Shown: positions 1-16,723 of the stretch, one piece after another
Position numbering within the stretch: the first letter of the stretch is position 1
Layout: each line of letters begins with the position of its first letter
Source: Fidelibacterota bacterium
GTDB lineage: Bacteria; Fidelibacterota; JAANXI01
DNA: 43,100 bases
NCBI GenBank assembly: GCA_018263365.1
Contig: JAANXI010000062.1
Coordinates: forward strand, 1 to 43,100
Direction: 5' to 3'
The notes under the pieces: generated by a model
Told to the model about the DNA's origin: nothing
Seen by the model: the letters and a program-made list of their open reading frames with translations, nothing else
Databases searched by the model: none
Made by a program: the position numbers and the translations under genes

Positions 1-721
1 CAATTATTTTGGCTGCAGGCCGTGGAAACCGGTTGAAAACCGTCTCTGAGGAGACGCCGAAATGTATGATCGAAGTCGGTGATAAGTCTCTGATGCATCA
101 CCAGTTGACCGCATTGAAAAATAACGGGATCACCGATATCGTAGTGGGGGTCGGTTATCGCAAAGATGACGTAGCAGCGCATTCGCAGAAAATTGATGGG
201 ATGCGGTTTACGTTTGTGGATAATCCCGATTACGCCACCACGAATACATCGTACACGCTCTGGATGTGCCGCGAGGAAATGGACGACGATTTCCTGTATC
301 TCAACGCCGATGTGCTGTTTCACGAATCACTCATTACGCGACTGCTTGAAGCGCCCGAAGACAATGTGCTGGCGCTAGATAACAAGCGATGCGGTGCCGA
401 GGAAGTGAAAGCGATTCTGAAAAATGACACGATTCTCCACATCGGAAAAAGTTGGATCAGGGCAAGTGTTACGGTGAGTTTATCGGCATCGGAAAGTTCG
501 ACAAGTCCATAAATAAACAGTTTATTGCGCACCTGGATGAGACGGTCAATGAGAAGATGCTGGTCAACGAGTACTTCGAATATGCGTTGGATATGCTCGT
601 GAAGGAGGAGCCGTTCCATTATGTGGATATCTCGGACATCCCGTGCATCGAGATCGACTTCCCGGAGGATCTGAAACACGCCGAGGAAGTAGTGTATCCG
701 GAGATTCGGGAGTATAGTTAA
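1..721 (+). pseudogene. LicC/PntC-like nucleotidyltransferase (cytidylyltransferase family); 5' end outside the window, reading frame broken at an A5 run
   Basis: The frame of ORF 9..512 stays open back to nt 3 (IILAAGRGNRL, the G-x-G-x-R-L NTP-transferase signature), so the start lies upstream of the window. After ...NDTILHIGK this frame runs into low-quality sequence (SWIRASVTVSLSASESSTSP*). The -1 frame (ORF 452..721) carries the expected C-terminal half (KLDQGKCYGEFIGIGKF ... CIEIDFPEDLKHAEE), colinear with the intact paralogue at 4895..5635 (GELVGITKL ... WIEIDKAEDLQRA). The frame junction is the aaaaa run at 446-450. Confidence 0.7.
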
Positions 722-803
722 TCTGATTAATACATAAATTTTCCAGGCTGGGAGTCTGCTACTCTTCGACAAGCTCAGAGCGACTTTCCGATTTCTTAAA
801 TCA

Positions 804-1859
804 TCACACCCCCAGTTTCCCCAAAAACTCCACCGCCCGCTCCGTGGATTTCCCATCGTTAAAGTAGAAGCAGTTATCCAACATCTCCTTTAACTCCGCC
901 TCGTACTTGTTCTCGCGGATATTCTCATCAACTAGCGGCTTGATCGGTTCGTTTTCATCCCAGTGATCGACGATCCCGCGCACATCGTATTGGCCGGGCT
1001 TTTCCACAATTTTGTCCTCTTCCATACCCACAATAAGAATCGGCGTCTGGAAGATTAGAGATTGATATGCTACCGAAGAGTTATCGCTGATGAGCAGATC
1101 CGCGATAGCCAGGTTTTCCATGGTATCTTTGGTGCGGATATTCCACGGCTCCACCAGGTACACGTGCTTTGAACCATTCTTTTTCAAATATTTTTTAATG
1201 TGCTTCATCTTCCGCCAGTCGTAATAGTGCGGACGGATAAAGAGGTTGTAATCGTCGGTGAGGTCATCAATATATTTATAGGAGTGCTCCAGCAGTGTGC
1301 CGCCGCCCCATTTCCAGGTCGGCGCATACACGACATTGGGACGAGATTTGTCCTTCACACCGAAGTCATCCAGGATTTTCGTCCGGTCCATTTCTCTATT
1401 GATGACTTTGTCAAACCGCATATTGCCGATCTTAATCATCTGATCTTCGGAGAGTTCCAATCCCACGATATTCATGAGTTTGTCGTAGCGCATGGGACCG
1501 TCCAGAAAGTAATAATCGAAGTCCGCGCGGTCCCGATCTCTGGGCGGCTTGTAGCCGGTGCCATGCCCCGTGTTAATGGTGGTGAGTTCCTCCGGGACGC
1601 GCTCGTAATCGAACTGGATCGAACTGACCATCACGCCGGAGAGCTTGGAGTAATCCTGGTAATCCATGTACCGGGTTTTGGGCTGCAGACCGAACCAGCC
1701 ACGGGACGGGTTTTGGCTGGGGAATCCGAAGAAATTTTGCTCGAGCTGCAACAGGGAACGCGGCTTGTGCACGATAAAGTCGCCGCCGATCTTCCTGTAA
1801 AGCGGCTTCAGGTATGAGAACTGGTAAATGTTCAGCGCGAGGTAATAAAGGTCTTTCAT
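804..1859 (-). CDS. CDP-glycerol glycerophosphotransferase (TagB/TagF, Glyphos_transf) family phospho-alcohol transferase
   Basis: 351-aa ORF. NVVYAPTWKW and ADLLISDNSSVAYQSLIFQTPIL match the conserved xLYAPT(W/F)R and L(I/V)(T/S)DYSS blocks of TagB/TagF enzymes. It is divergent from the PEP mutase gene. Confidence 0.7.
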   Translation of the reverse strand: MKDLYYLALNIYQFSYLKPLYRKIGGDFIVHKPRSLLQLEQNFFGFPSQNPSRGWFGLQPKTRYMDYQDYSKLSGVMVSSIQFDYERVPEELTTINTGHGTGYKPPRDRDRADFDYYFLDGPMRYDKLMNIVGLELSEDQMIKIGNMRFDKVINREMDRTKILDDFGVKDKSRPNVVYAPTWKWGGGTLLEHSYKYIDDLTDDYNLFIRPHYYDWRKMKHIKKYLKKNGSKHVYLVEPWNIRTKDTMENLAIADLLISDNSSVAYQSLIFQTPILIVGMEEDKIVEKPGQYDVRGIVDHWDENEPIKPLVDENIRENKYEAELKEMLDNCFYFNDGKSTERAVEFLGKLGV

Positions 1860-2039
1860 TCCATAATAGCCCCGTCTTTTTTCACGTTGATTGGCAGAAA
1901 ATAGATAAATTTCCCCTCAGATAAAAGCGGCAGCTCACTCCCGGCATCCACTGGGACGAAATTGCTCACTTTGTTTGTCGCATCCTCTGTATTACATTAA
2001 AATTATTGATCACAGGAATGTTAACACGAGGGTAACAGA

Positions 2040-3761
2040 TTGACACTCCGAAATATTATCACGCCGGAAAATCGCCGACGCCTGCTCAAAGAATTAATAC
2101 GGGAGAAGGGATTTGTTCGCATCATCGAGGCGCACAACGGCATCAGCGCGCTCATCGGGAATAACGCACACATCGATGTGGAAGAGGACGGTCAGACTTA
2201 CCGAGAGGAGTTCGACGGACTGTGGGAGAGCAGCCTGACCGACACTGCCAGCAAAGGCTATCCGGATGCGGAGATCGTCGGCGTCGATTCGCGGCTGATG
2301 AACATCAACCAGATTCTGGATGTGACCAATAAGCCGCTCATCGTGGACGGCGACACCGGCGGCGACGCCTCCCATTTCGAGTACATGGTGAAGCGGTTCG
2401 AGGCTATCGGCATTTCGGCGGTGATTATCGAGGACAAAGTGTTTCCCAAGCGGAATTCCCTCTCCAAAGATGCCAAACAGGATCTGGAGGACCCGGAGAC
2501 CTTTGCCAGTAAAATCCAGCGAGGGAAGGCCATCCAGTCTACCGATGATTTTATGGTGATTGCGCGGCTGGAGAGTCTCATAGCCGGGCACGGAGTCGAA
2601 GATGCGCTTCACCGGGCGAAAACCTATCTTCAGGCCGGGGCCGACGGCATTATGATACACTCCAAGGTCAAAGATCCCGGCGATGTTTTTCGGTTCGCCG
2701 AAGAATACGATAAACTCTGCAAAGAACTCGGCGACCGGAAGCCGCTGGTGTGTGTGCCGACCGCGTACAATCACGTGCCGGAGCAGGAACTCATCGACCG
2801 GGGATTCAACGTGGCGATCCATGCTAATCATATGCTGCGCTCGGCGGTGAAATCCATGGAGAACGTGGCCAAGAATATCCTGATCCATAAGCGCTCCCTG
2901 GAAGTCGATCCGTATTGTACTCCGGTGAAAGAGATCTTCAACATGGTCGGCTTTACCGACGTGAAGGAAAAGGATGCGGCGTACCAGAAACAGACCGGCA
3001 TCACTGCGATTATCCCGGCGGCCGGCAAGAGCCGCGAATTTGACGATCCGAAGGCGCTGCTGAAAATCAATAACAAGGCCGTGCTGGAGCATCAGCTGGA
3101 GACGTTGAACCGCTGCGGCATCGGCAAAACGGCAGTGGTCCGCGGATTCAAACGGGACGAGTTTCCCGATGTCAACGTCGCCTACTACGATAATCCGAAG
3201 TACGAAAACGGCTTTTCCATCGATTCACTTTTCCACGCCGAGGACGCCATCTCCGGTAAATTTTTGTTCATCAATTCCGATGTGCTGTTCAATGAGTTTA
3301 TCATCAAAAATCTGGTGGACACAAACCTCGACATCGTTATCGCCATCGACGGGACCTACAAATATCACACCCACATGCAGGACAAGGTGCTGGACCTGGT
3401 GGTGGCGAAATCCTCGTTCGACGGGTCACCGCGCCGACTGATTAAGCCCGTCGATCAGAAGGTGCTCCGCATAGGGAAGCAGCTGGATATGGAGCAGGCC
3501 GAGGGCGAATACACCGGCATCGCCTACTTCTCCGAGGAAGGCGCGGAAAACCTGAAGACGGTCTATCACGATTGCAAAGATACCGAGGGTAAGTTCCACG
3601 AGGCCAAAAGTTTCAAAAAGGCCTCGATGACGGACATGCTGCAGGAGATGATCGACCGCGGCTACGATGTCCATTTTCTGGAGGTCAACAAGGGGTGGCT
3701 GGAGATTCATAATCCCGAGGATAAGGCCAGCGCCGAGGAAATGCTTTCAACCACAGCATAG
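2040..3761 (+). CDS. pepM: Bifunctional phosphoenolpyruvate mutase / LicC(PntC)-like nucleotidyltransferase fusion
   Basis: 573-aa ORF with a TTG start 7 nt after GAGGG. Residues ~10-300 carry IIEAHNGISALI, LIVDGDTGGD and EDKVFPKRNS; the last is the EDK-x5-NS motif that separates true PEP mutases from other isocitrate-lyase-superfamily enzymes. Residues ~320-573 carry ITAIIPAAGKSREF..PKALLKINNKAVLEHQL ... WLEIHNPED, a nucleotidyltransferase domain paralogous to 4895..5635. Confidence 0.9.
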   Translation: MTLRNIITPENRRRLLKELIREKGFVRIIEAHNGISALIGNNAHIDVEEDGQTYREEFDGLWESSLTDTASKGYPDAEIVGVDSRLMNINQILDVTNKPLIVDGDTGGDASHFEYMVKRFEAIGISAVIIEDKVFPKRNSLSKDAKQDLEDPETFASKIQRGKAIQSTDDFMVIARLESLIAGHGVEDALHRAKTYLQAGADGIMIHSKVKDPGDVFRFAEEYDKLCKELGDRKPLVCVPTAYNHVPEQELIDRGFNVAIHANHMLRSAVKSMENVAKNILIHKRSLEVDPYCTPVKEIFNMVGFTDVKEKDAAYQKQTGITAIIPAAGKSREFDDPKALLKINNKAVLEHQLETLNRCGIGKTAVVRGFKRDEFPDVNVAYYDNPKYENGFSIDSLFHAEDAISGKFLFINSDVLFNEFIIKNLVDTNLDIVIAIDGTYKYHTHMQDKVLDLVVAKSSFDGSPRRLIKPVDQKVLRIGKQLDMEQAEGEYTGIAYFSEEGAENLKTVYHDCKDTEGKFHEAKSFKKASMTDMLQEMIDRGYDVHFLEVNKGWLEIHNPEDKASAEEMLSTTA

Positions 3762-3770
3762 GACTACGCA

Positions 3771-4898
3771 ATGCTACGTTGCAACGAATTTGCTGAGATC
3801 TGCAAGAATTTCAACCTCACTTTTTTTACCGGTGTGCCGGACAGTACCTACAAATCCTGGATGAGTTTTCTGGAAGAGGATCATCCGGGATTTACGAATG
3901 TTCCGACGGTGAACGAATGTGAAGCCACAGCCGTCTGTGCCGGATATCATCTGGCGACCGGCAAGTTTCCGGTGCTGTACATGCAGAACTCCGGCTTCGG
4001 AAAGACGGTTAATCCGCTGACCTCCCTGCTGGGACCGGATATCTACAAGATCCCCGCCCTGCTGATGATCGGCTGGCGCGGCGAACCGGGCAAACCGGAG
4101 GCGCACCAGCATCGCCAGATCGGCCGCATCATGACGGATTTGCTCGACCTGCTGGATGTGCGGTACTCTATCCTGTCCGATGATGCCGGCGAGGCGGCGA
4201 ATCAGATCAACGAGGCGGTCAATTACATGAAAATCGAGAGTCAGCCGTATGCGCTGGTTGTTCGCAAGGGTGTGTTCGAGCCGCTGGAAGCAAAGCCAAA
4301 ACCGGCGTCCGATCTGATGTCCCGCGAGGAGGCCATCTTTGCCATAATGGAGCACATTTCCGACGAAGATATTCTCGTCTCCACCACCGGCAAAACCTCC
4401 CGCGAACTGAACGAAGCGTACCAGCAGTTGGAACGGACGACAGCCAACAAATTTTACAATCCCGGCGCCATGGGATGTGCCCCGTCGATTGCGCTGGGCG
4501 TCGCCCTGCAGAAGCCGCACTCCTGCGTGTTCACTATGGACGGCGACGGCGCTCTGCTCATGCAGATGGGTGCGCTCGCGACCATTGGAATACAGCAGCC
4601 GTCAAACTATTATCATATTCTGTTTGATAACAATGCACACGAGTCTACCGGCGGACAGATCAACAACTCCGATGCGGTGGATTTTCGGGCATTGGCGAAA
4701 TCCTGTGGCTACAAAGATGCCACGATCGTCCGTTCCAAAGATGCACTGGCGGAGGAATTCCCGAAGTTTGCGGAAGCTGATGGACCAGTGATGCTCGTGG
4801 TGAAAATCCGCACCGGATCGCGGCCGGATCTGAGTCGCCCTGAAGAGCCGCTGGAGATCAAGCGCAAATTCATGGAACACCTCGACACGCTCTCATGA
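3771..4898 (+). CDS. aepY: Phosphonopyruvate decarboxylase (ThDP-dependent)
   Basis: 375 aa. N-terminal FFTGVPDSTYKSW; C-terminal ThDP motif MDGDGALLMQMGALATIG...FDNNAHESTGGQ (GDG...NN). AGGA lies 7 nt before the ATG. The gene is immediately downstream of PEP mutase, the canonical pairing. Confidence 0.85.
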   Translation: MLRCNEFAEICKNFNLTFFTGVPDSTYKSWMSFLEEDHPGFTNVPTVNECEATAVCAGYHLATGKFPVLYMQNSGFGKTVNPLTSLLGPDIYKIPALLMIGWRGEPGKPEAHQHRQIGRIMTDLLDLLDVRYSILSDDAGEAANQINEAVNYMKIESQPYALVVRKGVFEPLEAKPKPASDLMSREEAIFAIMEHISDEDILVSTTGKTSRELNEAYQQLERTTANKFYNPGAMGCAPSIALGVALQKPHSCVFTMDGDGALLMQMGALATIGIQQPSNYYHILFDNNAHESTGGQINNSDAVDFRALAKSCGYKDATIVRSKDALAEEFPKFAEADGPVMLVVKIRTGSRPDLSRPEEPLEIKRKFMEHLDTLS

Positions 4899-5635
4899 AA
4901 GCAGTCATACTCGCCGCAGGTATGGGAACACGCTTGCGTCCCATTACCGAAACCTTACCAAAAGCCTTCCTGCCCATCGATGGTAAACCGCTGATCTGGT
5001 ATTCGCTGAATAATCTGATGCGCTCCGGCATCACAGATGTACTCATTGTCACCGGATTCCTGCACGACCGGTTCCACGTCCAAATCGGCGATACTTTTAA
5101 GGATTCATTGAACATCGAATATGCGCACAATCCAAGATACTCTGAAACCGGCAGTATGTATTCCCTCTCGCAGACAAAGGAAATGATCGATGAGGATATC
5201 CTCATGCTGGAATCCGATCTCCTGTATGAGCAGCGCGCCATCGAGAGACTTCTGACGCGCGAATTCCAGGATACCATGCTGGTCGCGCCGCTGTCCGGCT
5301 CCGGCGATGAGGTGTACATCACCGCCGATAATGAAATGCACCTGACAAATCTTGGCAAAGATATCCCGGAGAAAGATCAGGCCATTGGCGAACTGGTTGG
5401 CATTACCAAACTGTCTTACAGTTACCTGGAAAAGTTGTGGGAATACGCAGAGCGGGATTACGACAATGGCAAGGAAAATTATCACTATGAGGAGGTCATC
5501 GTCCGCGTGGCGCAGAACGAGCGACCGCTACAGTGCTTAGTACTACCGGAACTCGCGTGGATCGAGATCGATAAGGCGGAGGATCTGCAACGGGCGAAAA
5601 CGGAGATCTATCCGGCGATCCAGAGCAACGAATAA
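4895..5635 (+). CDS. LicC-like nucleotidyltransferase (sugar-/phosphoalcohol-phosphate cytidylyltransferase family)
   Basis: 246 aa. MKAVILAAGMGTRLRPIT..PKAFLPIDGKPLI N-terminal signature and WIEIDKAEDLQRA C-terminal block. The start overlaps the upstream stop as ATGA (4895-4898), indicating translational coupling. Confidence 0.8.
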   Translation: MKAVILAAGMGTRLRPITETLPKAFLPIDGKPLIWYSLNNLMRSGITDVLIVTGFLHDRFHVQIGDTFKDSLNIEYAHNPRYSETGSMYSLSQTKEMIDEDILMLESDLLYEQRAIERLLTREFQDTMLVAPLSGSGDEVYITADNEMHLTNLGKDIPEKDQAIGELVGITKLSYSYLEKLWEYAERDYDNGKENYHYEEVIVRVAQNERPLQCLVLPELAWIEIDKAEDLQRAKTEIYPAIQSNE

Positions 5636-5697
5636 CATATTTACCGCAGAGGACGCTGAGAACACTGAGACTCACAAAAGATAAAACTGCATGTAAC

Positions 5698-5721
5698 CGC
5701 AAAGGCGCGAAGGCGCAAAGG
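5698..5721. repeat. 3 x 8-nt degenerate tandem repeat (cgcaaagg cgcgaagg cgcaaagg)
   Basis: Read directly from the sequence. It sits inside the 220-nt spacer that splits the AEP genes. The same spacer also contains ctgaga-aca-ctgaga, cttg-cttg-cttg and ctggac-tgtggac-actggac mini-arrays. Confidence 0.7.
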
Positions 5722-5855
5722 TTAGAAAAATCAGTAATGCTAAAAACGAGACAGGGCCTTGCTTGCTTGTTGACCCTGGACTGTGGACACTGGACCCAAG
5801 ACAAAATTGAAACGAACTGCATAGTTTAAATACTTCACATTATCATGGAATTATT

Positions 5856-6986
5856 ATGAAGCCAATTCAACGCAATATCTTGTTAAATCCCGGTCCGGCG
5901 ACGACGACGGACACGGTGAAGTATGCACAGGTCGTGCCGGATATCTGTCCCAGAGAGAAGGAATTTCAGGAAGTTATGGACGGTATTCGTGCAGATTTAG
6001 TGAAGATTGTCAACGGCGGAGATGACTATACCTCCGTGCTGTTCGGCGGCTCCGGCACCTCCGGGATGGAGGCGACGCTGGCGTCGGTGGTTGCTTATGA
6101 TTCGCAGGTACTGCTACTCATCAATGGCGCATACGGACAGCGGATGCTGCAGATCACCGAAACTTACGATATCCCGACGGTAGTCTACAATGTGGAATGG
6201 GGCACGGCTATCGACTGGTCTGAGGTGGATGCCATGTGCGCCAACAATCCGGATATCGGGTACATCGCCATGGTGCATCACGAGACCACGACCGGCATTC
6301 TCAATCCGCTGGGACCGTTCCTGGAGATCGCGAGAAAATACGATTTAGTTACAATGGTGGATACGATTTCGAGTTACGCAGGCATTCCCATTGATCTGCA
6401 GGGGACACCGGTGGATTTTCTAATGTCCACCTCCAACAAGTGCATCCAGGGAATGGCCGGACTGGCGTTTATCATCTGCCGAAATGAAGTGCTGAAGCAG
6501 CTCAAAGATGTACCTGGCCGCACGGTCTACCTGGATCTATATAAGCAGTACGAATACTTCGAGCGCACCGGTCAGATGCGGTTCACGCCGCCGGTGCAGG
6601 TCGTTTATGCGCTGCGACAGGCTATTGATGAGTACCTCGACGAGGGCATACAAAATCGCTGGGAGCGTTACAGCACAAGCTATCAGGTGCTGACCCAAGG
6701 GCTGGAGGAAATGGGCTTCCGGTTCCTGCTCGGAGGGGATGTGGAGCATTCCCGCATCCTGATGACCATTTACGAGCCGGACGATCCGAATTACGACTTC
6801 ACCGAACTCCACGATCGCCTGTACGAGCGCGGATTTACCATTTATCCCGGAAAAGTATCGGACAAGGAGACGTTCCGGCTGTCGGTTCTCGGCGCAATCG
6901 ATCAAAATGATATTCGTGAGTTTTTGAGGAATCTGCGCGAAGTGCTGCGTGAGATGAACATCGAGGTGAAGTATACGCGGTTTTGA
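5856..6986 (+). CDS. phnW: 2-aminoethylphosphonate:pyruvate aminotransferase (class V aminotransferase)
   Basis: 376 aa. N-terminal ILLNPGPATTTDTVKYAQV and the PLP-lysine region MSTSNKCIQGMAGLAF match PhnW/AepZ-type transaminases. It is co-oriented with pepM and aepY. Confidence 0.85.
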   Translation: MKPIQRNILLNPGPATTTDTVKYAQVVPDICPREKEFQEVMDGIRADLVKIVNGGDDYTSVLFGGSGTSGMEATLASVVAYDSQVLLLINGAYGQRMLQITETYDIPTVVYNVEWGTAIDWSEVDAMCANNPDIGYIAMVHHETTTGILNPLGPFLEIARKYDLVTMVDTISSYAGIPIDLQGTPVDFLMSTSNKCIQGMAGLAFIICRNEVLKQLKDVPGRTVYLDLYKQYEYFERTGQMRFTPPVQVVYALRQAIDEYLDEGIQNRWERYSTSYQVLTQGLEEMGFRFLLGGDVEHSRILMTIYEPDDPNYDFTELHDRLYERGFTIYPGKVSDKETFRLSVLGAIDQNDIREFLRNLREVLREMNIEVKYTRF

Positions 6987-7142: not shown

Positions 7143-7580
7143 ATGAACCCAACACAGTTGAAATCTTCCCTTGATGCGAAGCAAGATGCGATTATCGAGG
7201 AGTTTTCGCAACTTGGCGACGACTGGACAGAAAAATATCAGTATCTCATTCGTCAGGGACAAGAATTACCAGAACTGGACTCCAGGTATGTAAACGACGA
7301 AACCAGACTGAAGGGATGCCAAGCGCAAGTTTGGCTGCATTCATATATGTCGGATGGAAATCTGCATTTCGAGGCAAAAGTCGACGCCCATATCGTTCGG
7401 GGGATTGCCGCTCTGCTGATTCGGGTGCTCTCAGACAATCCACCGGAAACAATTCATGATGCGGACTTGTACTTTATCGATAAAATTGGATTGGAGAAAC
7501 ATCTCTCACCGGTGCGCTCGAATGGCCTGAATGCGATGGTGGAGGAGATACGGAGACGAGCGAGAGACAAAAGCTCCTAA
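7143..7580 (+). CDS. sufE: SufE-family cysteine desulfuration (sulfur acceptor) protein
   Basis: 145 aa. LKGCQAQVWL (the active-site Cys loop GC-x-S/A-x-VW of SufE/CsdE) and IVRGIAALLIRVLSDNPP. Size is typical for the family. Confidence 0.85.
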   Translation: MNPTQLKSSLDAKQDAIIEEFSQLGDDWTEKYQYLIRQGQELPELDSRYVNDETRLKGCQAQVWLHSYMSDGNLHFEAKVDAHIVRGIAALLIRVLSDNPPETIHDADLYFIDKIGLEKHLSPVRSNGLNAMVEEIRRRARDKSS

Positions 7581-7870: not shown

Positions 7871-9160
7871 TTAATCAGGAATACCCGTCTCAGTCGGATT
7901 CTCCGGATCGGCGCTCCACTCGAACCAGCCGCCGTCAAACACTGACACTCTCGGCCAGCCCATGAGCCAGGCATTGTAGAACGCTTCGCTGCCGCGCCAG
8001 CCGGTCCCGCAGTAAAACGCCAGGTGCTTATCCGGTGTGATGTCCGCTTCCCTCCATATTTCCGCAATTTCGTGATATTCACGGGTGGTGTGATCCAGGT
8101 TGCGGTAATTTTCCATGTGATACGCATCGCTGCCGCAGTTACCAAAGATGGCGCCGGGAATCCTCCCGGTCGGTTCGATATAATTGTATCCACTGACCTC
8201 GCCGATGAACTCCGGCCAGCTGCGAACGCTGACCAGGTCACCGTCGGAGGACTGCAGTAACTCTTTCGCTTCCGGCAAATCGACGAACAGCTTCGGTCTC
8301 CCGGGGATTTTCGCACCGAAGTCGCTGATGGGCTCGGGTTTGTTTGCTTCAGTGGTCAACTCATACCCTGCATCTTCCCAGGACTGGATGCCGCCGTTCA
8401 ATACTCTGACGTCTTCCACCCCGGCGTACATCATAATTGCTGCGCAGCGGATGGCACCCAAATGCCCGGCGCTACTGCCGGGATACGGATCTTCATTTTT
8501 CGGATACGAGAACCGTCCATACACGATGACCGTCGTATCAGGTGCAATCCCGTGCTCTTCCAGCGCTGCCTTCAGTTCCTCCGGCGAGCGTCGATTCCAG
8601 GTTTCGGGTGACTCAAGCGCCCGGGTATCCATAGAAATCGCGCCAGGGATATGTCCTGCGGCGTAATCATCGGGATTCCGGTAGTGAGCATGGACAAGCA
8701 CGTATTTGTCGTTGTCATAGTGCTGCGGTTTTTCACCAGCCAAGACAGAATGCAGCCACTCCGGCGGGACGAGATGTCTGTGTCTCTGCAGCCGATCCAT
8801 AGGCAGATCAGGATCAGCAACCCACTCGTTCAGAAAACCGTAGTAGACACGAATTTTATCGTATCCTGTTTTGGCAAACATTTCAGCAACTTGGTCTGTG
8901 TTTGCCACATCGTATCCATACAGGATGATGGTTTTTTCCGGTGTGATATCCTTGGACTGAACGATCTCAATCCAGTCCATATATCTTGTCCATTTTGCCG
9001 GCAAACTCTTTGCACCCCGGATATGTCCACCCCGGGATTCTCCTCGGAGCGCCCAGCCGTTGTAGGCATCGATGGATCGCACATCCAGCAGGATGGCATC
9101 ATCTTGAGATAATAATTTTTGAAGGTCGCCTGTTGAAATTTCCTGAACATTATTTTCCAT
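7871..9160 (-). CDS. Multi-domain rhodanese-family sulfurtransferase (three rhodanese modules, only the C-terminal one catalytic)
   Basis: 429 aa. Module 1 (LLDVRSIDAY...GHIRGAKSLP...IILYGYD) and module 2 (GHIPGAISMD...VIVYG) lack the active-site Cys. Module 3 has RIPGAI... and the catalytic loop FYCGTGWRGSEA. Confidence 0.85.
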   Translation of the reverse strand: MENNVQEISTGDLQKLLSQDDAILLDVRSIDAYNGWALRGESRGGHIRGAKSLPAKWTRYMDWIEIVQSKDITPEKTIILYGYDVANTDQVAEMFAKTGYDKIRVYYGFLNEWVADPDLPMDRLQRHRHLVPPEWLHSVLAGEKPQHYDNDKYVLVHAHYRNPDDYAAGHIPGAISMDTRALESPETWNRRSPEELKAALEEHGIAPDTTVIVYGRFSYPKNEDPYPGSSAGHLGAIRCAAIMMYAGVEDVRVLNGGIQSWEDAGYELTTEANKPEPISDFGAKIPGRPKLFVDLPEAKELLQSSDGDLVSVRSWPEFIGEVSGYNYIEPTGRIPGAIFGNCGSDAYHMENYRNLDHTTREYHEIAEIWREADITPDKHLAFYCGTGWRGSEAFYNAWLMGWPRVSVFDGGWFEWSADPENPTETGIPD

Positions 9161-9510: not shown

Positions 9511-10770
9511 ATGAGTCAACAAAATCTGATATTTATCACCCTGGATGCCGTGCGTCCGGATCATTTCAGCTGTTACGGTTACGACCGGTTCGAAACAAAG
9601 GGCATCGACGAAATCGCCGCCGAGGGCACGCTCTTCGAGAACAACATTTGTGCTTCCTGTCTGACGCCGATTTCCCACGCCACCATGTTGACCGGAAAAC
9701 AGCCCCAGAAACACGGTATTCGTCATCCCTTTTCCAAGGTCAAATCCAAGACGATTACTGAGATGATGAAGGAACAGGGCTACAGCACCGCCGGATTCGT
9801 CGGCATTAATTTCCTCGGTTCCACCCACGGCTTTGCTAAAGGTTTTGATTATTACAACGAGCCGACCAGCGAGTCCAGCTGGAACTCCAAGGAATATAAA
9901 AAAGACGACGAAACCATGCAGACCCTCTGGGGCAACTGGTGGATTCCAGACATGCTGGACTGGATGCAAAATCACGATGACAAGCCGTTCTTCATCTGGG
10001 CACATTATTTTGAGGTCCATTTCCTCTCGGAAAAATGGCTCCTGTATTCCGGCAAGATGCCCAAAGATGAGCTCTCCGACTGGGCGTACTATGACGGCAA
10101 ACTCAAGTACATGGACGAGCACTTTATCCAGCCGATGAACCAGCAGTTGAAAGATCTCGGCATCTGGGATAATACGGCCATTGCGTTGACCTCCGATCAC
10201 GGCGAAACCCTCGGTCCGGATAATCCCAATTGGGAGGATTACTATTTCAATTACCCACAGCACAAGACCATGCTGGAGGACGACATCCGCGTGCCGCTGA
10301 TATTCAAAGGCGCCGACGTTCCTAAAGGAAAACGTATCAAAAATACCACTACCGCAGTAGATTTGGTGCCGACCATCCTCGATTTCATGGATATCGATAC
10401 CGAAGAGGAATTCGACGGTCGCAGCCTCACGCCACTCTTTCACGATGAAGAACTGGATGAAACGGTCGCGTACGGTGAAGAACTCTACGAGGAACGTGGC
10501 AAGGGACCGCTGCAGTTTGTCCGGACCGATACGTATAAGCTTATCCGGAATCCGTCCGCCGGCGAAGAGGAATTCTACAATCTGGCAGAAGACCCCGGCG
10601 AGACGGATAACCGCATCGAAAAATTGACTGTTGAGGAAGCTGAAGTTGCCGAAAGATTCCGGAAAATCATGACGGATCAGTATGAAGGCTACCGTTCGGA
10701 TGATGCCGGTTTTACCGATGAAGAGTCAAAAAAGATCGAGGAGCGACTGCGGGACTTAGGATACATTTAA
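9511..10770 (+). CDS. Alkaline-phosphatase-superfamily metalloenzyme, sulfatase fold, with Thr rather than Cys/Ser at the nucleophile position (phosphodiesterase / pyrophosphatase-like)
   Basis: 419 aa. Sulfatase-like blocks NLIFITLDAVRPDHFSCYGY, ALTSDHGETLG and IRVPLIFKG. The nucleophile block reads C-L-T52-P-I-S-H-A-T-M-L-T-G-K-Q-P-Q-K-H-G-I, not C-x-P-x-R-x4-TG. GAGGA lies 5 nt before the ATG. No signal peptide is evident. Confidence 0.75.
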   Translation: MSQQNLIFITLDAVRPDHFSCYGYDRFETKGIDEIAAEGTLFENNICASCLTPISHATMLTGKQPQKHGIRHPFSKVKSKTITEMMKEQGYSTAGFVGINFLGSTHGFAKGFDYYNEPTSESSWNSKEYKKDDETMQTLWGNWWIPDMLDWMQNHDDKPFFIWAHYFEVHFLSEKWLLYSGKMPKDELSDWAYYDGKLKYMDEHFIQPMNQQLKDLGIWDNTAIALTSDHGETLGPDNPNWEDYYFNYPQHKTMLEDDIRVPLIFKGADVPKGKRIKNTTTAVDLVPTILDFMDIDTEEEFDGRSLTPLFHDEELDETVAYGEELYEERGKGPLQFVRTDTYKLIRNPSAGEEEFYNLAEDPGETDNRIEKLTVEEAEVAERFRKIMTDQYEGYRSDDAGFTDEESKKIEERLRDLGYI

Positions 10771-10918: not shown

Positions 10919-10982
10919 TAACACGGTAACACAATAACACGGTGTTACTTGAACACCTGAACACTTTAACACTTGAGCACTC
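10919..10982. repeat. Eight consecutive 8-nt units (taacacgg taacacaa taacacgg tgttactt gaacacct gaacactt taacactt gagcactc), the reverse-orientation GTGTTANN family
   Basis: Seen directly. The array ends one base before the ATG at 10984. Positions 10944-10972 match the reverse complement of 19023-19051 at 28 of 29 positions. Confidence 0.8.
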
Positions 10983-10983
10983 A

Positions 10984-11553
10984 ATGAACTCTATTGTAAT
11001 CGTCTCCGGGCTGCCGCGCTCCGGGACTTCCATGATGATGAAAATGCTGGAGGCAGGCGGACTGGAAGTCGTCACCGATGATATCCGCAAGGCGGACGAG
11101 GACAATCCCAAGGGTTACTACGAATTTGAACAGGTCAAGCAGATCAAGGACGACCAGTCCTGGCTGCCGGGGTGCCAGGGGAAAGTGGTGAAAATGGTCT
11201 CCAGACTGCTACTGGATTTACCGGAGAACTGGGACTACAAGATCATTTTCATGCGCCGGAAACTGGAAGAAATTCTCGCATCCCAGCGGAAAATGCTGGA
11301 GCGGAGCGGCAAACGGGCGCCCAGTAAAGAGGAAGACGCCGAAATGGCGGCCCTCTTCGAACGCCACCTGGATCACGTAGACCAATGGATGGAGCAGCAA
11401 TCCAACGCGGATTTCATCCATGTCAGCTACAATAAAACAATCCGCTCTCCGCAGGAAACAGCAGAAAAAGTGACCGCCTTTCTTGGCCGCGATCTCGACG
11501 TGGAAAAAATGTTGACTGTAGTCGACACGAATTTATATCGCCAGCGGAAATAA
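10984..11553 (+). CDS. Sulfotransferase-family protein (PAPS-dependent type, small soluble)
   Basis: 189 aa from the ATG at 10984 (MNSIVIVSGLPRSGTSMMMKML). GLPRSGTS resembles the 5'-phosphosulfate-binding P-loop, and IIFMRRKLEEILAS resembles the 3'-phosphate-binding block. The TTG-initiated extension in the ORF track (10942) only translates the repeat array. Confidence 0.7.
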   Translation: MNSIVIVSGLPRSGTSMMMKMLEAGGLEVVTDDIRKADEDNPKGYYEFEQVKQIKDDQSWLPGCQGKVVKMVSRLLLDLPENWDYKIIFMRRKLEEILASQRKMLERSGKRAPSKEEDAEMAALFERHLDHVDQWMEQQSNADFIHVSYNKTIRSPQETAEKVTAFLGRDLDVEKMLTVVDTNLYRQRK

Positions 11554-12319: not shown

Positions 12320-13444
12320 ATGAAAAAACCACTCTCCATTCTCATCCTACATCCCTGGATGTGTATCCGCGTAATAAAGCAGGCCTACGCATTGCTGAAC
12401 GAAGGACACTGCCTCTATTTCATTGTGGATAAGCCGGAGTCGCTCCCTTCTGATATTCAAAAACAAGCCGCGGGTATCCGGTACTTCCGATACAAGCTTA
12501 CCTGGTGGCGGCGCTGGTACTACCGGCGCTTAGTCGGGAAGTACTTGGATTACATCGACGTAATACATTGCCACAATGAGCCAAACCGCCATACACTTGA
12601 TGCAGTCAGGGCAAGCGAAGGAAGGGCGCCGGTTATCTACGACATTCACGATTTCACCTCCCTGCGGAAGGGAAAGCCGGATTCCACAGAAGAGAAGTGT
12701 TTTGACCAGGTGGACGGTATTGTCCATTCCGCAGACTCCTTTCGGAATATCGCCAAACGAAAGTACCCGGAAGCAAAACAGCAAAATATCGTCCTTTACA
12801 GCACACCGTCTCGGACGCAACTGCGGGGGAGTGAAGTCCTGCCAAAGATCGCTTCTGCACGGGAGGAAATCCACCTGGTTTATCAGGGCGGACTCATCGA
12901 TGAAAACTCCACCAACGCCGATCTGTTTAGCTACAGGGATTATCTCGACATTTTCCGATCCATTCTGAATGAAGGATTCCATCTACACCTATATTGTGCG
13001 TACGACAAAATCCCGACGGGATATCAACAGTTAGCCAGTGGTTTTCCGGAAAAACTCCATCTTAATGCGAGAGTTCCATATCCCGAGCTCCTTACCACCA
13101 TGAGCCGGTTCCACTGGGGGCTTACCGGGTTTAACTTCAGCAACCTTCGGAGTGAAACGACCCGGGAGTTTTTACACTCGGTGGTCCCGAACAAAATGTT
13201 TGACTATCTGCACGCAGGTATTCCCACCCTCGTGTTCAATGCCAACGCTGCAAGCCGGATAGCACGGGAGTACGGCTTCGGACTGGAAAAGGCTGAAGAG
13301 GAATCCTGGGCTGATGTCTTGGATCGGGGCGCATCAATGCTCAAAAAGGACTTGACCCCGGCGGCGGAATCCCTGACGATGGAGTCCCAAATCCCGAGGC
13401 TGGTGAGCCTCTATCGATCATGGACCGGAATCCGTAAATCATGA
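12320..13444 (+). CDS. GT-B fold glycosyltransferase (GT4-like)
   Basis: 374 aa. HCHNEPN...VIYDIHDF N-domain blocks and the C-domain VPNKMFDYLHAGIPTLV (E/K-x7-E-like nucleotide-sugar binding region). Confidence 0.7.
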   Translation: MKKPLSILILHPWMCIRVIKQAYALLNEGHCLYFIVDKPESLPSDIQKQAAGIRYFRYKLTWWRRWYYRRLVGKYLDYIDVIHCHNEPNRHTLDAVRASEGRAPVIYDIHDFTSLRKGKPDSTEEKCFDQVDGIVHSADSFRNIAKRKYPEAKQQNIVLYSTPSRTQLRGSEVLPKIASAREEIHLVYQGGLIDENSTNADLFSYRDYLDIFRSILNEGFHLHLYCAYDKIPTGYQQLASGFPEKLHLNARVPYPELLTTMSRFHWGLTGFNFSNLRSETTREFLHSVVPNKMFDYLHAGIPTLVFNANAASRIAREYGFGLEKAEEESWADVLDRGASMLKKDLTPAAESLTMESQIPRLVSLYRSWTGIRKS

Positions 13445-14463
13445 AAATCCTGATTTACTCCCCGAACTGGATCGGCGATGCGGTCATGGCCCTTCCCATG
13501 ATCAGGCGGACAAGGAAGGCCTTTCCCGGAGCAGAGTTTACCGTTTTTGCCAGGGACTGGGTAGCCCCGGTCTGCAGGTTTCTCGGAGAAGTCGATCTCA
13601 TTGTGGAGTTTTCCCGGGACGAGATAAAATCTTTCTGGTCCCGTCGCCGGATTATCAAATCATTGAAACAGGAAGATTACGATCAGGTCTTTCTGCTGCC
13701 GGACTCCTTTTCCACAGCTATGACGATGTTTCGGGCGCGCATTCCCGAGCGGATCGGTTATACCGGACAGTTCCGTTCTTGGATGCTGACCCGCCGGTAT
13801 CCCCTGGATATCGGAAGGACAATGCACCGATCGGATAAATACTGTCACCTCCTCACCGGTTACGCCGATAACGTTGAAATGGGATCACCGCCGCGCTTTG
13901 ACGGCCTGGAGGTTGGTCCGGTTGATTTGCCGGACTCGTGGGATAAATCGGCAATTACGATAGGCATAAACCCGCATTCGGTCGCCACCTCCCGCCGCTG
14001 GCCGGAGGAGTACTGGGTGCAGCTTTTCGAATCCTTTACGAATGAGAACATTCAGTTCGTTATTTTCGGAGGGGTAGATGCCAGGTCTATTGGTGATTCG
14101 ATCAGGAGTCAAACCAGCGCCGCGGTGCTGAACCAGGCCGGAAAAACTACCCTGAAAGAATCTATCCGGCTTATGGGCGAATGCCGGATATTTATTTCGA
14201 ATGATTCAGGTCCGATGCATATTGCAGATGCAGCCGGTGTCCCGACCATCGGATTATGGGGTGCGGGGAATACGGCGAAAACCGGACTCCGGTCGGAGCA
14301 TTCGGTCAATATCAACGCGGATGTGTACTGCAGTCCCTGTGAAAAGAACCACTGTATAAACAAGGAAGAGCCGATGCTCTGTATGCATTCGGTCACCCCA
14401 GATTGGGTGCGGGACAGCGCAAAAGACATGCTGAATAGTGCCCGCCCGGGGGGAGGCGTATAG
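13441..14463 (+). CDS. GT9 ADP-heptose:LPS heptosyltransferase family protein
   Basis: 340 aa. MKILIYSPNWIGDAVMALPMI N-terminus and ISNDSGPMHIADAAGVPTIGLWG, both hallmark GT9 (RfaC/RfaF) blocks. ATGA start/stop overlap with the upstream glycosyltransferase. Confidence 0.85.
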   Translation: MKILIYSPNWIGDAVMALPMIRRTRKAFPGAEFTVFARDWVAPVCRFLGEVDLIVEFSRDEIKSFWSRRRIIKSLKQEDYDQVFLLPDSFSTAMTMFRARIPERIGYTGQFRSWMLTRRYPLDIGRTMHRSDKYCHLLTGYADNVEMGSPPRFDGLEVGPVDLPDSWDKSAITIGINPHSVATSRRWPEEYWVQLFESFTNENIQFVIFGGVDARSIGDSIRSQTSAAVLNQAGKTTLKESIRLMGECRIFISNDSGPMHIADAAGVPTIGLWGAGNTAKTGLRSEHSVNINADVYCSPCEKNHCINKEEPMLCMHSVTPDWVRDSAKDMLNSARPGGGV

Positions 14464-14464
14464 G

Positions 14465-15595
14465 ATGGCAAAGGACCTCACTGGATATACCGTGATCTGC
14501 TTTTCACCTAACGACTGGTTTGGACTTCAGACCAGCAAGCAGCACCTGATGCGACAGTTTGCCAAATCGAACAAGATTATCTACGTGGAACCGGTAAAGG
14601 AGATTTTTTCCGTACTGGGGCGCCGCTCCCGGTGGTATAAATTCCGACGATCCCGCCTCGTTGCGCCAAATATCCGGGTGGTCAGTCCTGTGTCCGTTAT
14701 CATCCACAAGCGCCACAAATGGATCCGCCAGTTCAATCAGCATCTGAAGCTGTTTTTCCTTAGGCGGCATTTGAACCCGGAACAGGAACGATATATACTC
14801 TGGGCATACAATCCGTCAGCCCATGTGTATTTCTCAAATCTGCCTGCGGAGCTCAAGGTTTACTTCATCGCTGATGAATACGCCGCGGCCAGTGGAACGG
14901 TCTCGCCCTTTATTCAGTCCGAAGAGGAGAAAACGCTGCGGCAGGCGGACATCGTCTTTGCCATCACTCCGGAACTGGCCGATCAGAAACAACGAATGAA
15001 CGAAAATATTCACGTAGCCAGGAATGCCGTGGACACCTCGCTCTTCCGGCCGGAGCAGACTTACCCTGTACCGGAACCTCTCCGGCATGTCTCCTCGCCA
15101 GTGATCGGTTACATCGGCTCCTTCCGGCACTGGGTGGATGTCGAATTGATTGTTAAGGCGGCAAATCAAATACCGGAATTCCGGTTTGTGCTGGCCGGTC
15201 CGGGACTTGGGCAACACAATTTTCCAGAGAATGTCACCACCGTCGGCAAAATTCCGTATGAGGACGTCCCTAAATATATCTCTGGTTTCGACGTTGGGAT
15301 CATTCCGTTCAAAAATATCGAGTACGCCAGACATGCCGACCCGCTGAAGCTCTACGAATACTTGATTCTTGGGAAACCGGTGGTCTCCATTGGGGTAGAT
15401 TCGGTTACTCCAGTGCCCGGTGTGGTTTATACGGCGGCAACGGAAGACGAGTTTATATCGCATCTGAAGGTCGCCTGGGAGGACCGGTCCGAAAGCCGGG
15501 ACATTGCCGTAGAAATCGGGCAGCAGAACTCCTGGGAGGAGCGCACTGATTTTATCACTAAAAAACTCACCGGACAGCTCTATGCCACAGATTAA
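14465..15595 (+). CDS. Glycosyltransferase (GT4-like, TuaH-type)
   Basis: 376 aa from the ATG at 14465, 1 nt after the upstream stop. VICFSPNDWFGLQTSKQHLMRQFAK..IIYVEP N-terminus; VIGYIGSFRHWVD and ADPLKLYEYLILGKPVVS C-domain blocks. Confidence 0.7.
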   Translation: MAKDLTGYTVICFSPNDWFGLQTSKQHLMRQFAKSNKIIYVEPVKEIFSVLGRRSRWYKFRRSRLVAPNIRVVSPVSVIIHKRHKWIRQFNQHLKLFFLRRHLNPEQERYILWAYNPSAHVYFSNLPAELKVYFIADEYAAASGTVSPFIQSEEEKTLRQADIVFAITPELADQKQRMNENIHVARNAVDTSLFRPEQTYPVPEPLRHVSSPVIGYIGSFRHWVDVELIVKAANQIPEFRFVLAGPGLGQHNFPENVTTVGKIPYEDVPKYISGFDVGIIPFKNIEYARHADPLKLYEYLILGKPVVSIGVDSVTPVPGVVYTAATEDEFISHLKVAWEDRSESRDIAVEIGQQNSWEERTDFITKKLTGQLYATD

Positions 15596-16700
15596 GGTCC
15601 TGTTCAAGATGTTCTATTTGTATCACAAGGCAGCGTATGATCCTCTGATTGACGTGTTTGAGGAGGATGATCGGTTTGACGTATATCTTTCACTCTCACA
15701 TGAACTGGTACGCCGGTTTTTCATCTTTGAAATTGACAAGACCAAACCGTACCTGGAGCAGTTCAAGCGGGAAGGCCACCAGATCACCTACGAGGAAGAG
15801 CACTTCGATGTGGTCATTTGCCCTGATACTGTGAATGAAAAGAAATACGGCAAAACTATGCTGTGCCTTGTACATCACGGTATGGGACTCAAAACCGTAC
15901 TCTTCCGGAATCTGAAGAAGCACAACTCCCATCATTACAATATTCTGGTGGAAGGGCAGTACCGGGTAGAGACATTGCAGGAATCCGGGGTCTTGAACGG
16001 GTCGGAAGTGCACAAGGTTGGACTTCCGAAGCTGGACCCGCTCTTCTGGGACGGTCATTACGACCGGGAGGAGATACTAAACAACCTGGGACTGGATCCG
16101 GCCAAAAAGACTGTGCTCTTCGCCCCAACATATAAGCCGACCTGCATCTATGATGTAAAGGACGCCATCTTCGAGGAGACCGCCGCCTATAACCTGATTG
16201 TCAAAATCCACCACTACGCTTGGATGGGCAAGTTTGCCCGCCACAGCCAGCACCGGGTGATCCAGCGCCGGATCAGGAAGTACGAACACGCGGTGCTGAT
16301 CCCGAAGGAGACTTACAATATTATCCCGCTGATGTACGCTGCCGATACGCTGGTGGCCGAAGCTTCCAGCACGGTCTACAATTTTCTGGCCACCGGGAAG
16401 ATCGGCGTAATTTACGACCTAGATCACGATAACCTGCGTCATTCGGACGGCCAGCATATCCTCAATATCGATAACCGGGAATTTCTCAAAGACGCGTACG
16501 TTCACGTCTCCTCGCCAGAGGAACTGGCGGACGGCATTACTCGGGCGCTGCATCCCACGCCGGAGATGCAGCAGGCCGCTGACAAACAACGGGAATACTA
16601 TTACTATAAACCGGACGGAAAATCGTCACTTCGCACCCGGGAAAAGATTTACGACCTGTACCAGGAAGGCGGGCATCTGAATGATCCGGACAATGTCTAA
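15582..16700 (+). CDS. Second TagB/TagF-family (CDP-glycerol glycerophosphotransferase-like) phospho-alcohol transferase
   Basis: 372 aa. KTVLFAPTYKP and ADTLVAEASSTVYNFLATGKIGVIYD correspond to the LYAPT and DYSS blocks. It overlaps the upstream glycosyltransferase by 14 nt; an alternative ATG at 15609 is possible. Confidence 0.7.
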   Translation: MPQIKVLFKMFYLYHKAAYDPLIDVFEEDDRFDVYLSLSHELVRRFFIFEIDKTKPYLEQFKREGHQITYEEEHFDVVICPDTVNEKKYGKTMLCLVHHGMGLKTVLFRNLKKHNSHHYNILVEGQYRVETLQESGVLNGSEVHKVGLPKLDPLFWDGHYDREEILNNLGLDPAKKTVLFAPTYKPTCIYDVKDAIFEETAAYNLIVKIHHYAWMGKFARHSQHRVIQRRIRKYEHAVLIPKETYNIIPLMYAADTLVAEASSTVYNFLATGKIGVIYDLDHDNLRHSDGQHILNIDNREFLKDAYVHVSSPEELADGITRALHPTPEMQQAADKQREYYYYKPDGKSSLRTREKIYDLYQEGGHLNDPDNV

Positions 16701-16723
16701 TCGCAGCGTATAACTAGTATCCC

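Follow-up and report, generated by a model that had tools for sequence, protein, structure and literature searches.

The stretch of DNA analysed here (hereafter the window) covers positions 1 to 43,100 of contig JAANXI010000062.1, from Fidelibacterota bacterium assembly GCA_018263365.1. Near its left end, at positions 804-6986, it carries a cluster of genes for the synthesis and cytidylyl activation of 2-aminoethylphosphonate (AEP), together with a divergently oriented gene of the TagB/TagF family. An earlier note, made from the sequence alone, had described the cluster as a complete AEP pathway feeding the decoration of a surface glycan, and the start and end positions that it gave for the five open reading frames (ORFs) agree exactly with ours. 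On the minus strand lies a TagF-like phosphotransferase, called TagFa below (804-1859, 351 aa; PF04464, Glyphos_transf, 4e-17, over the gathering cut-off). From the ORF coordinates, a divergent intergenic region of 180 nt (1860-2039) separates it from four genes on the plus strand. The first of these (2040-3761, 573 aa) encodes a phosphoenolpyruvate (PEP) mutase, Ppm (residues 1 to ~315; PEP_mutase PF13714, 1e-50), fused to a LicC-like nucleotidyltransferase (NTase) domain (residues ~316-573; NTP_transf_3, 2e-10). The thiamine diphosphate-dependent phosphonopyruvate decarboxylase Ppd (3771-4898, 375 aa; TPP_enzyme_N and TPP_enzyme_C) starts 10 nt past the Ppm end, and is followed by a stand-alone NTase of the PntC AEP cytidylyltransferase type (4895-5635, 246 aa; NTP_transferase, 6.5e-21) and by an AEP:pyruvate transaminase of the biosynthetic AepZ type, AEPT (5856-6986, 376 aa; Aminotran_5, 1e-23). 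All the profile families expected from the earlier reading (Glyphos_transf, PEP_mutase, TPP_enzyme_N/C, NTP_transf_3/NTP_transferase and Aminotran_5) were matched, and the translational coupling of Ppd and PntC was verified as an ATGA stop/start overlap at 4895-4898. A promoter and terminator scan of the cluster, including the 180-nt intergenic region, gave nothing better than shuffled sequence, and Rfam and tRNA scans of the window returned no RNA genes.

The three enzymes proposed to make AEP (Ppm, Ppd and transaminase) all score above the trusted cut-offs of curated NCBIfam equivalog models. Ppm reaches 352 bits with the PEP mutase model TIGR02320 (cut-off 319.6), and models of the families that would compete for this protein, methylisocitrate lyase, carboxy-PEP mutase and phosphonopyruvate hydrolase, remain far under their cut-offs (170 against 374 for TIGR02321, 99 against 354 for TIGR02317, 53 against 420 for TIGR02319). 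Its best matches in the PDB are the PEP mutases 5UNC (1e-46) and 1M1B (3e-44). In addition to the isocitrate-lyase/PEP-mutase fold family, it carries the Ppm-specific EDKxxxxxNS motif, present as EDKVFPKRNS at residues 131-140 (nt 2430-2459) as had been reported. The product of 2040-3761 is therefore assigned by strong homology as a PEP mutase, predicted to convert PEP to phosphonopyruvate. Ppd scores 395 bits with TIGR03297 (cut-off 312.5). The transaminase scores 429 with the biosynthetic PhnW-AepZ model TIGR03301 (cut-off 361), compared to 362 bits with the catabolic PhnW model TIGR02326, which is under its cut-off of 401; on these scores a catabolic reading of the transaminase was rejected. 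The gene set for AEP synthesis and loading onto cytidine monophosphate (CMP) is very probably complete, and it corresponds to an ordinary, already-published pathway. The Ppm::NTase type of fusion represents ~33% of all Ppm proteins (PMC6697681), and a Ppm::PF12804 fusion with a second, stand-alone PntC one or two genes off is known in Atopobium, Olsenella and many Burkholderiales (PMC6697681, PMC8942020).

Three LicC-like NTases are encoded in the window (1-721, the Ppm-fused domain and 4895-5635), and they are not equivalent. The best PDB match of the stand-alone NTase is Tde1415 PntC (6PD1; E=4e-36), with residues 2-246 aligned on residues 4-242 of Tde1415; similarity to LicC (1e-18) extends over residues 1-112 only. 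E106 and E199 align with E104 and E196, the ligands of the AEP amine in Tde-PntC, and both glutamates are also kept in the orthologues of L081 and L086 (related loci are designated here by L and a number). These two glutamates contact the AEP amine in PntC and are replaced by Asp in phosphocholine-specific LicC, as described in the study of PntC biochemistry, where CMP-AEP is formed from cytidine triphosphate (CTP) and AEP (PMC6697681). Because of this full-length similarity to 6PD1 and the retention of both amine-binding glutamates, the stand-alone protein looks like a PntC and is the only NTase of the window resembling a validated AEP cytidylyltransferase; its preference for AEP is predicted. 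The Ppm-fused domain, taken alone, gives a weak LicC match only (3.6e-6) and no match to 6PD1. It carries Asn and Thr at the two PntC glutamate positions and a shortened GKSREF loop, and does not qualify as a PntC. More generally, the NTases of the window other than 4895-5635 have N/E or N/T at these positions. The earlier suggestion that the LicC-like domains of the cluster make CMP-AEP thus applies to the stand-alone enzyme and not to the fused domain, the NTases not being interchangeable.

TagFa was examined for its fold and its potential catalytic residues. An AlphaFold2 (AF2) model built with an alignment of 22 homologues has a pLDDT of 92.5 and a pTM of 0.90. The top Foldseek match is Staphylococcus epidermidis TagF (3L7J, E=2e-13, TM 0.69), followed by Cps3D, Bcs3 and TarL, with an identity of ~17% to these structural matches. 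H99 and H211 are the only invariant histidines in 22 family members. By profile alignment H211 (RPH) falls on TagF H584 (RMH); H99, in G-H-G-T-x-x-K, resembles TagF W-H444-G-T-x-x-K at the motif level only, the hidden Markov model alignment being unreliable there. Two invariant histidines are essential in this family, one of them assisting the CMP leaving group, and the catalytic pairs are H444/H584 in TagF and H300/H433 in TarL (PMC10901376). Polymerases of the TagF family possess an extra N-terminal domain; the primases TagB and TarF make a single addition (PMC10901376). TagFa consists of the GT-B part only, without the polymerase-type N-terminal domain, and for this reason resembles a single-addition primase. 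No genes for the synthesis of cytidine diphosphate (CDP)-glycerol or CDP-ribitol (TagD, TarI/J) were seen in the window; the neighbouring genes point to CMP-AEP as the putative donor here and to CDP-inositol in relatives. By analogy, transfer from CMP-AEP by TagFa would be chemically reasonable, as it presents the same CMP-O-P electrophile as CDP-glycerol, C replacing O on the far side. The likeness extends to the TagB/TarB/TarF primases and to the TagF-like Gram-negative capsule polymerases (TagF 3L7I, TarL 8VA1, Cps3D 8QOY, Bcs3 8A0C), which share with TagFa the GT-B TagF fold, the two invariant histidines and the YAPTW / RPH / SDxSS motifs. The expected chemistry is also the same: an acceptor hydroxyl would attack the distal P of a CMP-linked donor and CMP would leave. 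In contrast to these enzymes, the donor predicted for TagFa is a CMP-phosphonate instead of CDP-glycerol or CDP-ribitol, the predicted acceptor is the lipopolysaccharide (LPS) core instead of a teichoic-acid linkage unit or a capsule, and the relatives of TagFa appear to use CDP-inositol.

To place TagFa among its relatives, 79 species-representative genome loci were fetched by family alignment with TagFa as seed and queried with the window proteins; 22 of them are close relatives. The nearest named homologues come from Candidatus Neomarinimicrobiota/Marinimicrobia, then from Cloacimonadota and Fidelibacterota. On these homologues rests the probable assignment of the window to Marinimicrobia. 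The junction between TagFa and Ppm is kept in four lineages (the window and L080, L090, L081, and L086-88; 59-86% identity) with a spacing of 174-186 nt, while the other flank varies. L080 is a Logan contig from a near-identical genome (TagFa 100% identical, Ppm 99.7%). L090 (86%, 260-kb contig) reproduces the order of the window from LpxL to the sulfotransferase, with its left NTase intact. L081 (67%) shows the divergent arrangement TagFa and Ppm::NTase-Ppd-PntC-AEPT without MsbA, without any other NTase and away from LPS genes. In L086-88 (59%) the same divergent arrangement is followed by LicD, a second TagF-like gene, heptosyltransferase II and a LicC-like NTase. TagFa thus accompanies the AEP cassette in all four Marinimicrobia lineages having upstream sequence. 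In a neighbour-joining tree the AEP-linked TagFa proteins cluster together, with L085, of which the upstream region is missing; this clade is sister to two loci devoid of the cassette and next to L083 and L084, in which the TagF-like gene is linked to a gene for myo-inositol-1-phosphate synthase (MIPS). Eight positions separate AEP-linked from MIPS-linked TagFa, among them N96 beside H99 as well as N260, Q266 and S267, which fall within the SDxSS donor motif or immediately behind it. A metagenome scan seeded with the Ppm::NTase fusion returned 41 loci, and TagFa was found only in the closest relative, L090; most of the others are hydroxyethylphosphonate-type clusters without a detectable TagF-like gene. 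The pairing of TagFa with AEP genes is real but lineage-restricted.

The genes around the cluster belong to an LPS-core/lipid-A region. Downstream lie genes for SufE, a triple rhodanese, a sulfatase-like enzyme, a sulfotransferase, a methyltransferase, GT4, heptosyltransferase II, GT1, a second TagF-like protein and a Kdo/WaaP-family kinase, followed farther on by RseP, Dxr, LpxA, an LpxC-FabZ fusion, LpxD, Skp, BamA and UppS. The stretch from GT4 to the Kdo/WaaP-family kinase, identified from Pfam and NCBIfam, forms an LPS-core assembly block on the plus strand (12320-17497), in which heptosyltransferase II scores 181 bits with TIGR02195 (cut-off 135). The LpxC-FabZ fusion (23959-25359, minus strand, 466 aa) lies in an LpxD / LpxC-FabZ / LpxA operon by Skp and BamA. 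To the left, L080 extends the locus with the frameshifted NTase, an MsbA-type ABC transporter, Sua5 and the lipid-A acyltransferase LpxL. In the window, L090 and L086 the cassette has MsbA/LpxL on one side and the heptosyltransferase block on the other, and the LPS-core block adjoins TagFa directly in L084, L086 and L019. As the locus is an LPS-core/lipid-A region, this block is the likely source of the acceptor, and delivery of AEP to the LPS core appears probable. The envelope destination foreseen earlier is supported by this context and sharpened to the LPS core (LpxL, MsbA, heptosyltransferase II, LpxA/C/D). None of the cluster enzymes has a signal peptide, and their chemistry would therefore take place on the cytoplasmic face, where the core is assembled ahead of flipping by MsbA.

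Three genes of this region add to those of the earlier note: the third LicC-like NTase (1-721), the second Glyphos_transf gene (15582-16700) and the sulfatase-like gene (9511-10770). The NTase at 1-721 (plus strand, start beyond the window edge; NTP_transf_3/NTP_transferase 1e-9 in the first frame) is convergent with TagFa and is frameshifted: relative to the intact L090 orthologue (243 aa, L090 7706-8437) it has a 1-nt deletion near position 443, and its two frames join between LHIGK and KLDQGKCYGEF. The near-identical assembly L080 also calls two ORFs, consistent with the same frameshift, which means either that the gene has recently become a pseudogene or that both assemblies contain the same error. 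The intact orthologue of L084 finds LicC (1JYK, 8e-21) as best match and has Asn, not Glu, at the position of PntC E104. The second TagF-like gene (plus strand) lies between GT1 and the Kdo/WaaP-family kinase. Orthologues of this gene are found with heptosyltransferase II in many related loci that lack AEP genes, and it is therefore predicted to serve a separate, conserved phosphotransfer step in LPS-core assembly.

We propose that a cytoplasmic phosphonyl-tailoring (Pnt) pathway would decorate the LPS core with AEP, a scheme to which we give an even chance as a whole. By strong homology for each of its first four steps, Ppm would convert PEP to phosphonopyruvate, Ppd would pull the unfavourable Ppm equilibrium on to phosphonoacetaldehyde, the AepZ-type transaminase would produce AEP, and PntC would join AEP and CTP to give CMP-AEP. 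TagFa would then act as a primase at the inner membrane face, where an invariant His would deprotonate a hydroxyl of the nascent core; this hydroxyl would attack the phosphonate P, with CMP leaving, and MsbA would flip the AEP-bearing product. That TagFa is the AEP transferase is the best single hypothesis, suggested by conserved synteny and by the chemistry, and we consider the odds evenly balanced.

Several observations weigh against this role. To our knowledge, the use of a CMP-phosphonate donor has been demonstrated for no member of the TagF family. None of the 22 close TagFa relatives has Ppm, Ppd or AEPT within 10 kb (21 are informative, the contig of L001 ending at TagFa). MIPS and an NTase lie immediately upstream, on the same strand, in seven of the 22 (nine loci overall with L083 and L084), LicD is directly adjacent in about 10 of them, and a LicC-like NTase is found near the TagFa relative in 19 of 22. 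The MIPS and LicD links weigh against a dedicated AEP function for the TagF-like family as a whole. Moreover, the clade that unites the AEP-linked TagFa proteins has bootstrap values of just 41-58%, these proteins have no fixed residue that is theirs alone, and positions 260, 266 and 267 are shared with all four closest loci devoid of the cassette (L085, L002, L089, L082). In addition, TagFa has a LicC-like NTase as a neighbour, which could feed a different donor; L091 has the five-gene cassette on an 8-kb contig without a TagF-like gene; and the cassette is tied more closely to the sulfatase-like enzyme than to TagFa. For the transferase assignment put forward in the earlier note, the conserved divergent junction is thus favourable, as comparative evidence only, and the ties of most relatives to inositol-phosphate or LicD modules are unfavourable. 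A refutation of the TagFa-AEP link by absent co-occurrence was set aside: the 4.9-kb contig of L001 ends exactly at the TagFa start, and the same species carries the cassette in L086.

The transferase class found with such cassettes varies. No LicD (PF04991) was found in the 43-kb window, either by tblastn with the LicD of L086, a query that finds LicD in at least 10 related loci, or in Pfam scans, and the same scans of the window gave no CDP-OH_P_transf. Elsewhere, cassettes of the same type have LicD (L131, L132) or CDP-OH_P_transf (L132, L136) in the transferase position. This variation (TagF-like, LicD, CDP-OH_P_transf) supports TagFa as a putative functional counterpart of LicD.

In other relatives the slot upstream of the TagF-like gene is differently occupied: in L084 (56%) and L083 (53%) it holds MIPS plus an NTase. 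Operons comprising MIPS, an IPCT-like NTase, sometimes a sulfotransferase, and the TagF-like gene were observed in nine relatives (L084 5187-9103, L083 7519-10665, L005, L006, L008, L010, L013, L018 and L019, in the last seven ~2 kb upstream of position 10001 or its counterpart), where they adjoin MsbA/LpxL/heptosyltransferase genes. The best PDB match of the MIPS-linked NTase is 2XME, an archaeal CTP:inositol-1-phosphate cytidylyltransferase, and because of this resemblance the TagF-like enzyme of these loci is predicted to transfer inositol phosphate from CDP-inositol. These operons predict that Marinimicrobia and Cloacimonadota decorate their envelope with inositol phosphate in a CDP-inositol-dependent way. 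As the AEP operon and the inositol module share their position relative to one conserved transferase, exchange of donor cassettes is suggested: the AEP genes look like one of several donor cassettes that can replace one another at a constant place in the LPS-core locus, with TagFa as the head-group transferase.

TagF-like genes were also encountered next to phosphonate genes in three further settings. L083 carries at 321-6693 (minus strand) a hydroxyethylphosphonate-type operon with a cytidylyltransferase::Ppm fusion, Ppd, Fe-ADH, its own Glyphos_transf, a sulfotransferase and a LicC-like NTase; this operon and the organism's MIPS-NTase-TagF operon are divergently oriented. L031 (8205-10684, plus strand), from an Endomicrobiales metagenome-assembled genome, has a PF01467 cytidylyltransferase::Ppm fusion followed directly by Glyphos_transf and three glycosyltransferases in a glycosyltransferase/MBOAT locus; phosphonopyruvate decarboxylase was not detected within 10 kb. 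The TagF-like lineages beside the PEP mutases of L083 and L031 are independent of TagFa. Finally, in L082 (897-6771) a TagFa orthologue (52%) lies beside a PhnC/D/E-type phosphonate ABC importer, one binding-protein copy of which is fused to the permease, and beside a 136-aa cytidylyl/adenylyl-transferase. This arrangement may mean that phosphonate taken up from outside is salvaged for the same decoration.

The main rival for the transfer step is the product of the sulfatase-like gene (9511-10770, plus strand; PF00884, 3.6e-42), a cytoplasmic sulfatase-fold enzyme of the alkaline-phosphatase superfamily. Aligned to 7P24, it has T-P-I-S-H where type I sulfatases have C/S-x-P-x-R. T52-P53, which replaces the formylglycine motif, and the metal-ligand positions D12, D229-H230 and H251 are invariant in 19 homologues (41-81% identity). 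Judged from these residues, the protein has the sulfatase fold without the formylglycine motif and is thus not a canonical sulfatase. No signal peptide was detected in the window protein or in any of the 19 homologues. The homologues with more than 40% identity, from bacteria and archaea, make up ~42 clusters and stand sharply apart as a group. Every member with readable upstream context lies in a Ppm cluster; the exception is L134 (43%), whose contig ends close to the gene. It is the most conserved accessory gene. It directly follows AEPT in L081 (3595-4869), in L091 (5729-6988), in the Thermoplasmatota archaeon L131 (8001-9260), with LicD nearby, and in L136 (10001-11260), in a Wzx/Wzy polysaccharide locus with two CDP-alcohol phosphatidyltransferases. 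In L132 (8001-9755) it lies beside a cytidylyltransferase::Ppm fusion, with three LicD and one CDP-alcohol phosphatidyltransferase, and in L090 it holds the same position as in the window. The recurrent unit therefore comprises five genes: Ppm::NTase, Ppd, PntC, AEPT and the Thr-type sulfatase-fold enzyme. This recurrence, as well as the varying transferase class, makes the latter the most tightly linked unexplained component of the cassette; it is possibly an AEP transferase, or an enzyme processing CMP-phosphonates or phosphonate esters.

If it were the transferase, Thr52 would attack CMP-AEP to form a covalent AEP-enzyme intermediate and AEP would be passed to the acceptor, as EptA/MCR-1 and LtaS do with lipid donors, while TagFa would move another head group supplied by the LicC-like NTase or by the Ppm-fused NTase. 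The contig of L091, which has the sulfatase-like gene and neither TagF-like nor LicD, would fit such a division, as would the LicC-like NTase neighbour that TagFa has of its own. However, LicD, TagF-like or CDP-OH_P_transf genes are found near the cassette on every longer contig and would be redundant if the sulfatase-like enzyme transferred AEP, and the TagFa of L081 has no NTase partner beyond those of the cassette. The closest sequence relatives of the protein are hydrolytic sulfatases and phosphonate monoester hydrolases. Known Thr-type transferases of the sulfatase fold are membrane-anchored and extracytoplasmic and use lipid donors. The proteins of the EptA/MCR-1 and LtaS type do share with the 9511-10770 product PF00884, the position of the Thr nucleophile and conserved metal ligands, and AEP is the phosphonate analogue of phosphoethanolamine, the EptA/MCR-1 head group. 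They differ in being anchored in the membrane, in acting outside the cytoplasm and in using phospholipid donors; the 9511-10770 protein is soluble, has no signal peptide and is closer to true sulfatases. On balance we regard transfer by the sulfatase-like enzyme as rather unlikely.

Around this gene, SufE (7143-7580, plus strand) and the three-domain rhodanese (7871-9160, minus strand) separate AEPT from the sulfatase-like gene in the window and in L090, and neither occupies this place in L081 or L091. The sulfotransferase (10942-11553, plus strand; Sulfotransfer_3 and Sulfotransfer_1) adjoins the sulfatase-like gene in the window, L090 and L081. A link of SufE/rhodanese and the sulfotransferase to sulfur or sulfate handling is possible.

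A second alternative is that CMP-AEP is made but sent elsewhere, to a phosphonolipid, a capsule or O-antigen sugar or a glycoprotein, by a transferase encoded elsewhere, the TagF-like and LPS genes being linked by position only. Related cassettes do occur in a Wzx/Wzy locus with CDP-alcohol phosphatidyltransferases (L136) and in LicD- and radical-SAM-rich loci (L132), that of L081 does not lie beside LPS genes, and marine phosphonates have been attributed to glycoproteins (PMC8931226). However, the window itself offers neither of the two alternative transferase types, TagFa keeps company with the cassette wherever upstream sequence is available in Marinimicrobia, and the position between MsbA/LpxL and the heptosyltransferase block recurs in three loci, so that we find this alternative less likely still. 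Catabolism of AEP or production of a diffusible phosphonate natural product instead of surface decoration is very improbable: PhnW-family transaminases also degrade AEP, but the catabolic model stays under its cut-off and the biosynthetic one passes, both Ppm and Ppd serve biosynthesis, cytidylyl activation speaks for transfer to a macromolecule (PMC6697681), and no phosphonatase, PhnA, PhnY/Z, C-P lyase, ATP-grasp, NRPS or oxygenase tailoring genes were found in scans of the window, in accordance with the absence of phosphonatase, C-P lyase and antibiotic-type tailoring genes noted earlier and borne out by Pfam scans of the larger ORFs.

Delivery to the LPS core through TagFa, the reading we prefer, can be compared with described systems. 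The Pnt clusters of Atopobium rimae, Olsenella uli and Treponema denticola (PMC6697681) and the AEPT-type neighbourhoods (PMC8942020) contain, like the window, a Ppm::PF12804 NTase, Ppd, a second PntC and AEPT, and share with it the cytidylyl activation to CMP-AEP and a presumed cell-surface glycan target. In the published clusters LicD-like phosphotransferases or glycosyltransferases are proposed to act next, whereas the window has no LicD and holds a TagF-like GT-B enzyme in that place. The window further differs by its diderm host, by the location of the cluster inside an LPS-core locus and by the Thr-nucleophile sulfatase-like gene in the cassette. Sulfatases are mentioned once only, for Selenomonas clusters, by Li and Horsman in 2022 (PMC8942020). 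Rice and colleagues in 2019 proposed LicD-like enzymes and called the steps after CMP-AEP enigmatic (PMC6697681). Full-text literature searches returned no paper linking PF04464/TagF to PEP mutase clusters, although TagF-like genes may have been mentioned earlier in actinomycete phosphonoglycan clusters, and no paper identifying a CMP-AEP transferase.

In the Lic pathway (LicA/B/C/D), by which LPS and teichoic acids are decorated with phosphocholine, a LicC-family NTase likewise cytidylylates a small zwitterionic head group, which is then moved to an envelope glycan, and a LicC-like NTase (frameshifted in the window) adjoins TagFa. The difference is that the head group of the window would be made de novo with a C-P bond, and that no LicA kinase, LicB permease or LicD is present in the window. 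The fosfomycin enzymes Fom1 and FomD provide another parallel, Ppm being fused there to a cytidylyltransferase, and a precedent for a dedicated enzyme processing CMP-phosphonates, a possible analogy for the sulfatase-like gene. However, Fom1 carries a PF01467 domain at its N-terminus and has hydroxyethylphosphonate as substrate, FomD has a fold with no relation to that of sulfatases, and no Fom3/Fom4-type genes are present in the window. The core AEP/PntC pathway is already published; the TagF pairing and the sulfatase-like partner are new as variants.

The locus and its relatives narrow the search for the AEP-transfer step to two small, soluble and expressible candidates, a TagF-like GT-B protein and a Thr-type sulfatase-fold enzyme. 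They also provide natural controls, in the form of TagFa orthologues in predicted CDP-inositol operons and of the same cassette with LicD or CDP-alcohol transferases. The missing transfer step thereby becomes directly testable, and there is evidence for swappable head-group cassettes. More tentatively, and with the balance of probability against it, Marinimicrobia and their relatives may diversify the LPS core by swapping activated head-group cassettes (AEP and PntC; MIPS and a CDP-inositol-type NTase; LicC/LicD) before one clade of TagF-like primases. TagFa would then be the first TagF-family phosphonyltransferase and the Thr-type sulfatase-like enzyme, found from bacteria to Thermoplasmatota, an unrecognised obligatory Pnt step. 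Roughly half of the microbial capacity for phosphonate biosynthesis is believed to serve cell-surface molecules, and Marinimicrobia (SAR406) are abundant in the ocean. If the proposal is true, the high-molecular-weight phosphonate of the sea would have a concrete source in the AEP of Marinimicrobia LPS, and AEP-LPS would be a variable trait of the cell surface that bears on escape from phages and grazers.

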